From a virus, in IMG/VR virus record IMGVR_UViG_3300032397_000010, positions 6,131 to 70,130 of that record: a stretch of 64,000 bases of DNA. One strand, written 5' to 3'. The notes under the pieces are model-generated. The model made no database searches, was not told the origin of the DNA, and saw only the letters and a program-made list of their open reading frames with translations. Positions 46,034-56,475 of the stretch are shown one piece after another. Position 1 is the first letter of the stretch, and each line of letters starts with the position of its first letter. Made by a program: the position numbers and the translations under genes.

Positions 46034-47344
46034 GTGGCAATTCAATTCCTCGGCGAACGAACCCTGCAGGCCGTCACGTCCGGCCCGCCCCGCCCCCGCG
46101 TCTACCTGGACTCGGCAGCGACCACGCTGATGGCCGAGCCTGTCAACCGGGTCATGCAGCGGTATCTGGCGTCAGGCTGGTACTCGAACCCGCACTCGGA
46201 ACTCACGACGCCGTCGCGCGTCACGGCCGAGGTGATCGCCGAGGCGCGAGGACTTCTGGCCCGCCTCGTGGATGCCCCCGAAGGACACGTCGTGGTCTTC
46301 GGTGGATCCGGGGCAACGGAGCCCCTGAACATCCTGAGCGTGGCGCTGTTCTGTGAGGGCAGCGTCCGAGACACGGTCGTCGTGACGCCGCAGGAGCACC
46401 ACAGCAACCTCTTGCCGTGGATGCGTGCCGCATCACGCCTGATCGTGTCCCCGCTGAACAACGACGGATCTCTGGATCTCGAGGTGTTCGAGAAGATCCT
46501 GCTTGCCGAAGGGAAACGAATCCGTCTCGTGGCCGTGACGGCAATCTCGAACGTCACGGGCGTGCGCAACCCGATCAGCGAGATCGCGAGGATCGCTCAT
46601 CGTGTCGGCGCGGAAGTTGTCGTCGATGCGACGCAGGCTGTCGCTCACGTCCCGCTCTCGATGCGAACCCTCGGGATCGACTACCTCGTCGCGTCGGGAC
46701 ACAAGATGTACGCGCCTGGGACTCCGGGCTGGATGGTGATCCCGTCCACGATGCCATGCGATCGGTGGGAACCGGGCAACGTCGGCGGCGGAACGGTCGA
46801 TGCGGTCTGGATGGACAAGGCATCGGTGAAGTTCAAGTCGAGCATCATCGACCGACTCGAGGGCGGCACCGTGAACATCCCCGGCATCGTGGGTCTCGGC
46901 GCGGCAGCCCAGATGCTGATGCAGCAAGGGCTTCGGCAGATTCAGGATCACGAGCAGGTCTTGATGACGCGGATGCGTGACGGTCTCGAGGCGATCGGCG
47001 GCGTCGCAACGTACGGCCCCGGCGACCGCGTGGGCATCCTGGCGTTCAACATCGAAGGGTTCACCTTCGATCAGGTCGCGTCCGCCCTGAACGACTACTT
47101 CGCGATCTCGGTGCGCGCCGGAGCGTTCTGCGCCCACCCGTACGTGCGCGATCTGCTCGATGGGCAGACGGGCCGACTCGGCATGGTGCGAGCTTCGCTG
47201 GGCATGTACACGACGATCGAGGATATCGACGCGTTCCTGGCTGCGGTACGATGGATCGTCGCGAACCGCGAGAAGGTCGTCACGCCGCGCGAGCCTCCCG
47301 CCGGAGAATTCTCGATCACGAAGGAGATGAGTGATGGCTCGTAA
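46034..47344 (+). CDS. Cysteine desulfurase (class V PLP enzyme, SufS/Csd-type)
   Basis: YLDSAATT, EHHSNLLPW, VDATQ, SGHKMYAP (PLP Lys), RAGAFCAHPY (catalytic Cys), RASLGMY. Confidence 0.92.
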   Translation: MAIQFLGERTLQAVTSGPPRPRVYLDSAATTLMAEPVNRVMQRYLASGWYSNPHSELTTPSRVTAEVIAEARGLLARLVDAPEGHVVVFGGSGATEPLNILSVALFCEGSVRDTVVVTPQEHHSNLLPWMRAASRLIVSPLNNDGSLDLEVFEKILLAEGKRIRLVAVTAISNVTGVRNPISEIARIAHRVGAEVVVDATQAVAHVPLSMRTLGIDYLVASGHKMYAPGTPGWMVIPSTMPCDRWEPGNVGGGTVDAVWMDKASVKFKSSIIDRLEGGTVNIPGIVGLGAAAQMLMQQGLRQIQDHEQVLMTRMRDGLEAIGGVATYGPGDRVGILAFNIEGFTFDQVASALNDYFAISVRAGAFCAHPYVRDLLDGQTGRLGMVRASLGMYTTIEDIDAFLAAVRWIVANREKVVTPREPPAGEFSITKEMSDGS

Positions 47345-48272
47345 GAATCCGTCCGTGTTGCTCGGCAACGAGATCGGGAAGCTTCAGCAGGATGTCGCTG
47401 CGACGCTCAACAAGCACGACGCGGTCTACGGCAAGACCCGGTTCAGCCACATGCCGCTGTACGGCCTGCATGTGACGAATCTCGCTCCGTCATGGCTCAC
47501 GAAGCAGACGAGAGATGCTGTCGTGAGAGAGGCGTGGCGTCACGGGTTCTACATCTCGGACGAGGCGCGCGGACTCGACATGCCCATCGACGAGCGGCTG
47601 CGGTACGGGTTCATCCTGTGGGCGACTCCCGAGACCATCGAGAAGTTCAGGCGACACGGAATCACATGGGCCCGCGAGAATCCGTGCGCCTCGCGAGCGC
47701 AGCAGCGCCTGTTCCACGCGCTGGCCGCGCGCGGTGAGATGGACCCGCGCACCGTGCGCGAGTTCGATGTCGCGTCGCGAGGGATGAAGCTGCCGGAGCG
47801 CGTGCGTCGAAACCCAGCGACGACACGACGACGCCCACTTTCCCGTAACCGCCTACTCCTCGCTCGTCGCACTCGCTTCATGCGTGAACTGCGGACCGCT
47901 GCCGAGATCCGCGCGCTGCACAACCGTTGCGACGCACGCACCGGGGCATGGCTCAGCGGCGAGTGCTACTACGGCGAGCCTGCCCGCAAAGGGCTCGTGC
48001 GCGTCTCCCGCAGGAACCCCAGCAACGATCCGGTCGATGCGTTCCTCGCGCATGCGTACGCCGACTCGTTCATCCGCCGGACGCTGACGCCGGAGATCAA
48101 GAAGAAGCTGAGTCGCGACATCGCGCTCGGTCAGTACGATCGCGCCGAGGCGCTCGAGAACTGGAAATGGTGGGCACAAGCTGCCGCTGGCATGTATCCT
48201 ACCCGCGTCAGCAGTTCGCTGATCGATCAGGTAGCCCGCGAGATGCGGATCAAGTTCGAGGCAGCAACATGA
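47334..48272 (+). CDS. Polyprotein-like hypothetical protein with four RxNP motifs
   Basis: RKNP, RENP, RRNP and RRNP delimit segments. Confidence 0.75.
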   Translation: MARKNPSVLLGNEIGKLQQDVAATLNKHDAVYGKTRFSHMPLYGLHVTNLAPSWLTKQTRDAVVREAWRHGFYISDEARGLDMPIDERLRYGFILWATPETIEKFRRHGITWARENPCASRAQQRLFHALAARGEMDPRTVREFDVASRGMKLPERVRRNPATTRRRPLSRNRLLLARRTRFMRELRTAAEIRALHNRCDARTGAWLSGECYYGEPARKGLVRVSRRNPSNDPVDAFLAHAYADSFIRRTLTPEIKKKLSRDIALGQYDRAEALENWKWWAQAAAGMYPTRVSSSLIDQVAREMRIKFEAAT

Positions 48273-48532
48273 ACGCCAGCGAAATGGTTGTCGTGGCACG
48301 GCTTGCAGACCACTACGAGGACCGAGGCATCGAAAATCCGCTGGACACAGCGGATCACGACTTGCGCAAGTTCAAGCACGAGGCTCCGGCGCTGTGGCGG
48401 CGACTAAGAGACTCTGGTCTGTCGGACCGAAAGACCGGAGATTGGCTGTATAAGTTCATCGTTCGATGGTCCCGATCGGGCGTATCGTTCAAGAACTTCG
48501 CTGCTGATGAGCTAGAGCGATCGGAGCTATGA
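48269..48532 (+). CDS. Hypothetical protein
   Basis: Coupled ORF. Confidence 0.55.
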   Translation: MNASEMVVVARLADHYEDRGIENPLDTADHDLRKFKHEAPALWRRLRDSGLSDRKTGDWLYKFIVRWSRSGVSFKNFAADELERSEL

Positions 48533-54980: not shown

Positions 54981-55744
54981 GACGAACGCAGCATGTCGTG
55001 TCCCCGGACCGCATCATCTATCGAGCGGTGACTGGCGGCTTCATCACCGCCGCCGAGGCAGATTCGCAGGTGGTTCACGACCACGCGCTCTGGACGGCCG
55101 AGAGGCTCGACAGCGAATGGCCCGAAGGTGAGGGCTTCGGGTCGAGCGACATGACGTTCGTGCTCCAGGAGTTCCTGGAGAGCCTCGGCATCAAGACCGC
55201 GTTCGTGAACGGACGCCTGACTGCCGTGCGGAGTAACCCGCACGGCAAGCCAGACCCGTGCCTGCATCCCGAGAAGACGGCGCGCCCGCAGACTCCGCAG
55301 CTTCACAAGAAGCTCGCTGCGAAGGGCGTCTGGCACAGAGGAGATGTCAACGCTGACATCGGCGGCGGCCCCTTCGAGTTCGCCACGGACTTCCTGAAGA
55401 GCGAGGGCGTCACGAACATCGTCTGGGATACGTTCAACCGGTCGAAGGCGCACAACGAGGCTGCGATGCGCAAGATCACGCGAGGCGTGGACAGCGTGAC
55501 CATCGCGAACGTCTTGAACGTGATCAGGGATAAGGGCGAGCGAATCAAGCTCTTGCACTTCGCCGCGAGCGTTCTGAAACCTCACGGCGTCGTCTACGTC
55601 TGGATCCACGAAGGCGACGCTGAGAACCGGGGCCACCCGGACAAGTGCCAGAACAACATGCCGACGGCGTGGTACGTGCCTGAGATTCAGACGGTGTTCC
55701 GTGAGGTGGAGCGACGCGGACGGATCATCGCAGCGCGGATGTGA
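54977..55744 (+). CDS. SAM-dependent methyltransferase domain behind an RSNP-delimited leader
   Basis: DIGGG (motif I), WDTFNR, DSVTIANVLNVI...ER, LKPHG. Confidence 0.75.
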   Translation: MRRTQHVVSPDRIIYRAVTGGFITAAEADSQVVHDHALWTAERLDSEWPEGEGFGSSDMTFVLQEFLESLGIKTAFVNGRLTAVRSNPHGKPDPCLHPEKTARPQTPQLHKKLAAKGVWHRGDVNADIGGGPFEFATDFLKSEGVTNIVWDTFNRSKAHNEAAMRKITRGVDSVTIANVLNVIRDKGERIKLLHFAASVLKPHGVVYVWIHEGDAENRGHPDKCQNNMPTAWYVPEIQTVFREVERRGRIIAARM

Positions 55745-56475
55745 TGCTGCTGTACCACGGCACAGCAAGGTCGAATCTCTCCTCGGTGGCGAGAAGCGGT
55801 CTTCGCGCGCCGCTGTGGGTAGCGAAGACCTTGGAGGCGGCGGCGAACTGGGCCCAGTTGCGCAGCGCCCACTGGGTCGGCAACCAGCGCGTAACGCCGC
55901 CCGTATCGATCCTCCGGTTCCACTGGGACGGAGACCTGTACGAAGACACGAACACCCTGGACCCCAACCTCGGCGTGCTGCGAGACGAAGTTCCGGCAGA
56001 GACCATCGACGTGCTGGTGGGTAGCCCATGGACCGCAGCGCGCAAGCGGTGGAGGCGCATGCTCCCTGTGAGAACGAACCCATCGATCAGCCTCGAGATC
56101 GTAGGCGACCCTCGCGGCTTCGACGTCGTGCTCACGCGGCGCGGTCGCAAGGTTGGCAAGCTCACCGCCGAGCACACCTCCAACACGCTGTGCCAGGACG
56201 ACCTGGAAGAGATGCGACACATCGTCGGCGACGCCTTCCTGGACACGTACGTCGTCACCGGAGCGAGGATCGACGCGGTCCTGTTCAACCAGGGCGCAGG
56301 TCTGAAGATGTACCTCGAAGCGATCCATGAGGCCGCAAGACGAGGCGGCGTGCTCGCCCCTCACGTCTGCATCGGGGTCGGCGGGACGTCTACGGCTGCG
56401 ATGCGCGTGTGGAACAGCAAGCGCCTGTCCGAGCACGTCCTGCGGGTCGGTAGGCTGGTCTACTGGGCAGGCTGA
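55741..56475 (+). CDS. ADP-ribosyltransferase-like (YHGT) domain, RTNP linker, GNAT-like domain
   Basis: LYHGT..NL..V..SGL; NQGAGLKMY (acetyl-CoA motif A-like) and A.RVW. Confidence 0.6.
   Translation: MMLLYHGTARSNLSSVARSGLRAPLWVAKTLEAAANWAQLRSAHWVGNQRVTPPVSILRFHWDGDLYEDTNTLDPNLGVLRDEVPAETIDVLVGSPWTAARKRWRRMLPVRTNPSISLEIVGDPRGFDVVLTRRGRKVGKLTAEHTSNTLCQDDLEEMRHIVGDAFLDTYVVTGARIDAVLFNQGAGLKMYLEAIHEAARRGGVLAPHVCIGVGGTSTAAMRVWNSKRLSEHVLRVGRLVYWAG

Follow-up and report, generated by a model that had tools for sequence, protein, structure and literature searches.

A recurrent Arg-x-Asn-Pro motif in the accessory proteins of an uncultivated bacterial virus lineage and its possible role in protein processing

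Introduction

What does a four-residue peptide do when it recurs ahead of unrelated protein modules in a single virus? Arg-x-Asn-Pro (RxNP) raises this question in the IMG/VR record IMGVR_UViG_3300032397_000010, a single linear sequence of 70,130 bp with a G+C content of 64% and a CheckV completeness estimate of 63%. The window analysed here is a stretch of 64,000 nucleotides (nt) that covers bases 6131-70130 of this record, and all positions refer to it unless another sequence is named. A preliminary description made from the letters alone had listed 11 RxNP sites in seven proteins and read them as a cleavage or targeting signal that releases a mix of host-modifying enzymes. All 11 sites were recovered at the same positions (every site in Table 1 except RQNP), and three more were found, namely RQNP at 33925 and two outside the window in a protein of 216 amino acids (aa; G000:C1:2092-2742, minus strand).

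Judged from sequence comparison, RxNP is a short linear protein-level signal that selection maintains in a rare, uncultivated lineage of high-GC viruses of bacteria. Within one accessory-protein block, it is located in flexible joints, in leaders at the N-terminus and in tails at the C-terminus, and it probably acts as a cutting or loading signal. A full-text literature search gave no description of such a motif among the matches listed.

Enrichment of the motif

Our own codon-usage gene caller, applied to the whole record, yielded 116 genes (21,981 aa). Nine of the encoded proteins carry the 14 RxNP sites, compared with 2.42 ± 1.53 sites expected from per-protein shuffles, and none of 2000 shuffles reached this number (Poisson P = 1.9e-7); about two of the 14 sites (2.4 expected) are thus attributable to chance. 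Shuffling inside 15-residue blocks gave nearly the same expectation (2.28), again with no match to the observed count in 300 shuffles. The comparison with shuffled proteins, which had been proposed in the preliminary description, therefore reveals a clear excess. RxNP ranks second among all motifs of the form a.bc, after GxTG, and third over six three-residue templates, behind GxTG and CxxCG. The reversed motif and near variants were flat (PN.R 2 vs 2.4 expected, K.NP 1 vs 0.8, R.GP 5 vs 6.4, R.DP 7 vs 4.8), and the same holds for NP.R, R.PN, R.QP and R.SP. The core form can be written as R-x(0,1)-N-P, often with V directly before it. Across the 48 distinct sites that we collected, the residue after NP is most often S, A, R, K or G, the +1 and +2 positions are variable, and Arg is enriched around the sites at -3, -4, -7 and -10.

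The sites are concentrated in one part of the record, with 10 in the block 46034-58532 (0.50 expected) and four in the remainder (1.87 expected, P = 0.12). The spike/fibre block holds one site (0.41 expected) and the replication block none (0.82 expected), in agreement with the earlier remark that the motif is missing from replication genes.

The excess resides in the protein and not in the DNA, as had been suspected. The sense frame contains the DNA pattern encoding RxNP 14 times, each of the five remaining frames only one to four times, and codon usage differs from one site to another, which rules out a DNA-level repeat or site. Paralogous flanks were likewise rejected as a cause, since an all-versus-all BLASTP comparison found no similarity among the motif-bearing regions. 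Several sites have GTG or ATG before the R, as might result from over-extended frames or internal starts. We discarded this explanation given that in-frame coding potential is present on both sides of nearly every site; GTG, where it precedes R, is a common Val codon.

Conservation in GP88-like proteins

Conservation of the motif was best followed in a 708-aa protein of the block that gives a weak Pfam match to GP88 and bears two sites in its N-terminal region. An exhaustive profile search returned 323 GP88-like homologues, and the window protein was aligned with 45 top-scoring hits (P0003-P0049 without P0017 and P0042), which are 33-68% identical. At site 1, the R, N and P columns retain the motif residue in 37, 40 and 37 of the 46 proteins, and at site 2 in 30, 35 and 43, while the x position and the adjoining columns are variable and gapped. 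Purifying selection thus appears to hold R, N and P at both sites inside variable loops, and the conservation among homologues that had been asked for is found across 46 diverged proteins. An alignment-free count gave a similar picture, with R(x)NP upstream of a conserved TGxWG motif in 32/46 proteins and within 110 residues downstream of it in 26/46. Tandem copies occur in several members, with pairs in P0010, P0031 and P0050.

The motif is carried by 36 of the 46 proteins, and the 10 without it cluster on a tree built solely from the core region downstream of both sites; examples of motif-poor clades are P0040/45/47/48 and P0041/46/49. Five changes suffice to explain this distribution (mean of 9.2 when shuffled; none of 500 shuffles that low). 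In an AlphaFold model based on the 46-row alignment (mean predicted local distance difference test, pLDDT, 78; predicted template modelling score, pTM, 0.81), both sites lie in coil segments (residues 31-63 and 95-111) with pLDDT <50 between confident parts.

A search of this model against PDB folds gave no match at E ≤ 0.001. The family possesses invariant Cys clusters (C225, C231, C235 and C664, C668, C671, C685), and the gene adjoins a cysteine desulfurase gene. The GP88-like protein is probably an unstudied metal- or Fe-S-binding enzyme.

Distribution among relatives

A metagenome scan with the 708-aa GP88-like protein yielded four loci. Genes of the relatives were called in the same way as those of the record, and RxNP sites were counted as observed versus expected. 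Locus L002 carries 11 sites (0.53 expected) and is a mosaic near-twin of the record (most genes 97-100% identical), hence no independent replicate. The excess was repeated in two relatives with much more divergent GP88-like proteins, i.e. L003 (35% identity; 4 sites vs 0.77 expected, P = 0.004) and L005 (37% identity; 15 sites vs 0.86 expected, and in addition 15 RNP vs 0.84). The motif is found in 10 genes of the run 6612-18084 of L005, and a 734-aa protein encoded directly upstream of its GP88-like gene contains eight RxNP sites and approximately eight modules. Most of the motif-bearing proteins of L005 and L003 have no detectable similarity to proteins of the window, and it is the motif rather than the proteins that the relatives have in common. 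Directly upstream of the gene for the 734-aa protein, at 6612-7588, L005 encodes two further proteins, of which one is RadC-like, with a JAB domain and an RRNP leader at its N-terminus, and the other has 133 aa and an HExxH word.

Control loci behaved differently. A contig of a Myxococcales metagenome-assembled genome (MAG), L010, encodes a full-length GP88-like protein without the motif and has one RxNP site (0.75 expected), while the distant L001, found by its primase, has none (0.47 expected). The thirteen loci from a search with the family alignment, L010 included, hold seven sites together (~3.8 expected), and all fourteen control loci pooled also seven (~4.2 expected). Enrichment of RxNP is thus evidently lineage-specific, with no excess where the GP88-like protein lacks the motif.

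No useful relatives were found among isolated phages, nor in IMG/VR scans with the 708-aa protein, alignment A1 or the hydrolase alignment A3, and a scan with alignment A2 gave only the short-core relative L008. A homologue search with the DUF5661 protein, for which an approximate query was used (first codon dropped, stop codon kept), returned nothing. Phage SSIP-1 shows an excess of the motif (5 vs 1.27 expected, P = 0.011), and its gp41 starts with MRENP; BLASTP gave one weak match to the record only (E 6e-4, 28.9 bits), by which no kinship is established.

The mosaic nature of L002 is visible in the comparison with window positions 45938-59723, where three segments have been replaced within otherwise near-identical DNA. 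These are the GP88-like gene (74% DNA identity), the stretch 55240-56091, for which L002 has a different cassette that includes a gene for a 316-aa lipoprotein-like protein, and a 265-nt stretch with a small open reading frame (48269-48532) that is missing in L002.

Position at module boundaries

The preliminary description had placed RxNP at N-termini or between recognisable domains, and this was borne out at the seams that we checked (the proteins at 25351 and 55741 and the 708-aa GP88-like protein). In the 25351 protein, a CxxC...CxxC zinc ribbon ends seven residues ahead of RKNP, and Pfam DUF5661 follows at residues 129-176; its L005 homologue has NP without the R at this place and carries RTRNP directly after DUF5661. 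Modules adjacent to the motif can also be separate genes. Residues 115-244 of the 244-aa protein at 55741, just after RTNP, correspond to a separate 131-aa gene in L002 (92% identity), and the module that starts nine residues past RPNP in a 417-aa protein of L003 matches a stand-alone 146-aa protein of L005. A module that L003 shares with the 734-aa protein of L005 ends exactly at RINP. At the DNA level, a block 99.5% identical to L002 stops at 55239, within the Pro codon of RSNP, and identity resumes at 56092, 10 nt beyond RTNP, so that the exchanged cassette begins in one motif and ends shortly beyond the following one.

On an approximate disorder scale, the sequence around 42 sites showed a higher tendency to disorder than randomly chosen positions of the same proteins (P = 0.0005) and than NP dipeptides outside the motif (P = 0.006). 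Both sequence and model data indicate that the motif sits in loops and at seams of module exchange.

What these modules do is difficult to read from databases. Strings of four modules in the 313-aa protein, two in the 244-aa protein and about eight in the 734-aa protein of L005 receive almost no names from Pfam, in which all proteins of the record but one (115 of 116) were searched and 25 of the 31 families hit at E ≤ 1e-4 were listed. ART, GNAT and methyltransferase labels had been suggested earlier; none has a Pfam match, and the only pointers to them are ESM Atlas leads to a methyltransferase (0.97) for the 248-aa protein at 54998 and to GNAT (0.89) and an ART-PolyVal+GNAT cluster (0.82) for the 244-aa protein. 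The 313-aa protein has only two homologues (99% and 93% identity), and its single-sequence model was unusable (pLDDT 39); every segment shows in-frame coding potential, which is weakest at residues 159-226.

One seam of the earlier list did not hold. RGNP at 57711, described as separating a transmembrane part from a hydrolase, is kept among 23 homologues only in one hit that is identical to the query and is absent even from an 81%-identical homologue, so that this site may have arisen by chance. A second, inverted copy of the hydrolase-like gene is found near the end of the record, and RGNP is carried by the first copy only.

Function of the motif

The motif is held in loops in which nothing else is held, it occurs in many unrelated proteins, and it is missing where the GP88-like protein of a relative does not carry it, which together calls for a lineage-specific reader or a lineage-specific chemistry. 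Among the explanations considered, a processing site ranks first and we lean towards it, while giving it slightly less than an even chance. It is preferred because the seams of multi-module proteins are all punctuated, the modules are separate genes elsewhere, and R and N are fixed around a free x, a pattern that would suit an extended peptide in a protease cleft. Each module of the multi-module proteins has an RxNP site ahead of it. On this view, cuts in or next to the Asn-Pro bond would divide chains of small modules into separate proteins, for example the 313-aa protein and the 734-aa protein of L005 with its eight sites. Leaders or tails would be removed at RxNP as well, and the cutting agent would be lineage-specific and encoded outside the DNA fetched. 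Cleavage itself, the position of the cut and the cutting agent are what we infer from this arrangement. The earlier proposal of a cleavage or targeting signal is upheld only as far as a conserved protein-level signal at seams is concerned; the protease that it called for was not found on the 63%-complete record.

Several observations weigh against processing. Some sites lie only 4-10 residues from the N-terminus (MMARKNP, MKMRRTNP), where a cut separates nothing, and most proteases do not readily accept Pro directly behind the bond that they cut. In the GP88-like model, residues 1-25 and 64-90 are confident (block-mean pLDDT 67-89) alongside the core, hence a cut need not release them, and the 57711 site is not conserved. 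No peptidase was present among the listed Pfam matches (25 of 31 families, 115 of 116 proteins) or found by individual protein scans, no HExxH word occurs in the motif-bearing proteins, and the two HExxH proteins at hand, encoded at window position 35788 and at 7187 in L005, are unrelated to each other. The former had been put forward as a zincin, an assignment that we dropped: the HExxH word is its sole support, searches of Pfam (up to E ≤ 5) and the PDB gave nothing meaningful, and the protein belongs to PHROG 13834, a family with no assigned function. For the L005 protein, the sole match was to WLM and lay below threshold (E 0.057, 13.9 bits vs a cut-off of 26). Given that the record is ~63% complete, the failure to find a gene for a reader or protease is uninformative and its absence unproven.

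The strongest competitor of processing is a docking or loading tag, in which RxNP would be bound, uncut, by one common receptor, e.g. a part of the particle, a machine for export or in the membrane, or a hub protein of the host, and the cargo gathered for instance into the particle. We regard this as a realistic possibility, less probable than processing. Lineage specificity implies a reader in this case too, and the context of the sites is flexible. Sites at extreme N-termini and near C-termini (LPRRRNPRRRKKW at the end of an L002 protein, APKRNPARRPRRKRK near the end of an L005 protein) are explained better by docking, since cleavage there would be of little use, and the same is true of tandem copies in one loop such as RRNPRGKEPRRRNP in L005 and the GP88-like pairs. 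On the other hand, eight sites in one 734-aa protein and one per module in the 313-aa protein resemble punctuation more than a tag, there is no known receptor, and capsid, portal and terminase families, which might provide the context of a particle, were not among the listed Pfam matches (25 of 31 families, 115 of 116 proteins) of the 63%-complete record. Processing and docking could also coexist. A passive feature is much less likely, i.e. a sequence without a reader that is simply preferred in linkers or as a helix cap and moves along with the modules when these are shuffled. It would accommodate the ~2.4 of 14 sites expected by chance and the unconserved 57711 site, and helices begin right after three of the four motifs in the model of the 313-aa protein, which is of low confidence and unreliable. 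However, R, N and P are kept in variable loops over 46 diverged proteins, the order and identity of the residues are specific, and the enrichment is repeated in L005 and L003 with mostly unrelated motif-bearing proteins and not seen in control loci.

Roughly as improbable is a nucleic-acid hook, where R-x-N-P in basic surroundings would bind a groove like an AT-hook and tether the proteins to the viral genome. Strongly basic flanks in L005 (e.g. KTRRRNPD, RPRRGRRNPT and KEPRRRNPKKAK) and the Arg enrichment at the four upstream positions agree with such a role, but most flanks in the window are non-basic and many in the GP88-like family are acidic (e.g. RVNPTTDDDEDD), K is no substitute for R, and the GRP core that defines AT-hooks is missing (x is free in R-x-N-P, in contrast to the R-G-R-P core). 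We consider a translation-level signal the least probable of these explanations. Pro in the A site after R-x-N would pause or interrupt peptide bond formation, as with SecM RAGP, RAPP arrest peptides or viral 2A NPGP, and modules would be separated on the ribosome, perhaps in conjunction with the viral transfer-messenger RNA (tmRNA). The geometry of R at -2, a residue in the P site and Pro in the A site fits that of known arrest motifs, and the motif-rich block includes a complete tmRNA gene, which L002 possesses as well. Yet R.GP is not enriched and the upstream context is variable, in which the sites also differ from SecM and RAPP arrest peptides, and the parts of L003 and L005 that were fetched yielded no tmRNA. 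We know of no ribosomal separation mechanism of this kind in bacteria. A rare-codon pause at Asn was rejected: the AAT share is 0.40 at the motif and 0.33 at other NP dipeptides (P = 0.53), and the AAT excess is a general effect of a following codon that starts with C (0.29 of Asn codons before other C-starting codons, 0.09 elsewhere). The dependence of Asn codon choice on the next codon is common to the record, L003 and L005 (AAT 29-40% before a C-starting codon, 9% elsewhere). Finally, modules might be separated with no protease at all, either by slow enzyme-free breakage of Asn-Pro in linkers or by a 2A-like interruption of the ribosome at Asn|Pro in which the tmRNA might help. This carries little weight for us, marginally less than the nucleic-acid hook; if true, several proteins would arise from one frame in a manner undescribed for bacteria and their viruses.

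Comparison with known systems

The closest architectural parallel to the module strings is found in the polyvalent proteins of phages and conjugative elements, which combine two to fifteen distinct effector domains per polypeptide of a phage or plasmid, enter the recipient cell together with the DNA, and commonly include a zincin-like metallopeptidase or other peptidase domain. Processing by a built-in zincin-like peptidase domain was proposed for them; the passages of that paper found by term search mention no seam motif (Iyer et al. 2017, PMC5512222). Common to both are several unrelated small modules strung together in one polypeptide of a mobile element, with putative enzymatic or binding functions in our proteins and with release by processing as the proposed outcome, and the 244-aa protein even has an ESM Atlas lead to ART-PolyVal+GNAT clusters. 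As far as the passages found allow a comparison, our proteins differ in that they are short (110-734 aa), that no built-in peptidase domain was found in them, and that their seams bear a conserved four-residue code.

Proteases that mature virions read comparably small codes, such as L/I-x-E for gp21 of T4, S/A/G-x-E for gp175 of phiKZ, (M/I/L)xGx-G for the adenovirus protease AVP, and GG-x for pS273R of African swine fever virus. As with RxNP, numerous proteins of a single virus, otherwise unrelated, have a very short consensus in common, which relatives conserve. In these systems, sites near termini and between parts are read by one virus-specific enzyme. The Asn-Pro core sets RxNP apart from them, and no cognate protease was found on the 63%-complete record.

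This core recalls self-cleavage by Asn cyclisation, as in the NPTH loop of FlhB/YscU and at N42-P43 of reovirus mu1 (asparagine peptide lyases in MEROPS). Asn-Pro is the bond with the best-documented enzyme-free cleavage, and the known cases need a strained, folded loop. Asn followed by Pro is shared with RxNP, where both are invariant by definition in the 48 sites collected. Unlike in these lyases, the sites described here lie in loops with pLDDT <50, are followed by variable residues at +1 and +2, and lack helper residues of the TH type. The Pro-Pro endopeptidase PPEP-1 of Clostridioides difficile, which cuts VNP|PVP, shows that a zincin can depend on Asn-Pro directly ahead of its cut; it needs Pro after the cut, however, where RxNP is most often followed by S, A, R, K or G, and no related enzyme was found.

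Short peptides that demarcate exchangeable modules are also known from polymorphic toxins (VENN in CdiA, PxxxxDPxGL in Rhs). They are conserved just upstream of the module that is exchanged, similar to the L002 exchange that begins inside the motif. They mark one C-terminal toxin per secreted bacterial protein, however, while RxNP occurs at many seams of many viral proteins.

If RxNP is a cutting site, these viruses would use a polyprotein strategy with a simple four-residue code. RNA viruses and a small number of large DNA viruses of eukaryotes are well known for such strategies, which, to our knowledge, have hardly been described for bacterial DNA viruses. The Asn-Pro core would then point to a protease of unusual specificity or to a cleavage chemistry without an enzyme. 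As a docking tag, the motif would define the cargo list of a sorting system. Either way, it serves as a handle that marks module boundaries in proteins that databases cannot annotate and identifies a class of co-regulated accessory proteins. Given complete genomes, its lineage-specific pattern allows the gene for a reader to be sought by comparing motif-rich with motif-poor relatives.

Gene content of the record

The motif-bearing proteins and further features are compiled in Table 1.

Table 1. RxNP sites, motif-bearing proteins and additional features (window positions unless a relative is named).
Feature	Position	Strand	Description
Tad6, inhibitor of type I Thoeris	12794-13222	+	strong Pfam match (E 6e-47); inside the replication/early block
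227-aa protein	25351-26034	-	zinc ribbon, RKNP 25728-25717, then DUF5661 (Pfam)
RQNP	33925-33936	+	residue 690 of the 806-aa protein 31858-34278 (gene call)
313-aa four-module protein	47331-48272	+	RxNP ahead of each module, residues 4, 115, 159, 227
RKNP (MMARKNP)	47340-47351	+	residues 4-7 of the 313-aa protein
RENP	47673-47684	+	residue 115 of the 313-aa protein
RRNP	47805-47816	+	residue 159 of the 313-aa protein
RRNP	48009-48020	+	residue 227 of the 313-aa protein
708-aa GP88-like protein	48534-50660	+	weak Pfam GP88 match; two RxNP loops within the N-terminal 110 residues
RRNP, GP88-like site 1	48702-48713	+	residues 57-60
RENP, GP88-like site 2	48840-48851	+	residues 103-106
110-aa protein, start MKMRRTNP	54107-54439	+	site 54119-54130; 100% identical in L002
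248-aa protein	54998-55744	+	N-terminal part, RSNP 55229-55240, then methyltransferase-like part
244-aa two-module protein	55741-56475	+	RTNP 56071-56082 between modules
tmRNA gene, complete	56529-56879	-	Rfam 113 bits; within the motif-rich block
296-aa membrane-anchored hydrolase-like protein	57642-58532	+	RGNP 57711-57722 after a hydrophobic helix
Second copy of the hydrolase-like gene	63524-64000	-	inverted; 81% identical; cut by the record end
tmRNA gene of L002	11451-11800	-	
tmRNA gene of L021	1502-1862	-	

The record encodes several replication-type proteins, among which are three helicases and a primase-helicase as well as exonucleases and an annealing protein of the Sak4-like type. 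Further named genes comprise cell-wall and phosphatase enzymes, the cysteine desulfurase, an integrase-family recombinase and a group of spike-like proteins.

The tmRNA genes provide a possible link to a host. The tag of the viral tmRNA reads ANDNATAARQAA and that of L002 ANDNATATRQAA, and the viral tag does not end in LAA. In the Myxococcales MAG that contains L010, the chromosomal tmRNA encodes the tag ANDNALALAA, and the ANDNA start common to the viral and Myxococcales tags may hint at the host group.

Module sharing of another kind is seen in the spike group, where an N-terminal module of ~55-65 residues is common to seven proteins (window 26689-42110 and G000:C1:394-1539) with unrelated C-terminal parts. 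Two of these seven are mini-proteins of 64 and 67 aa.

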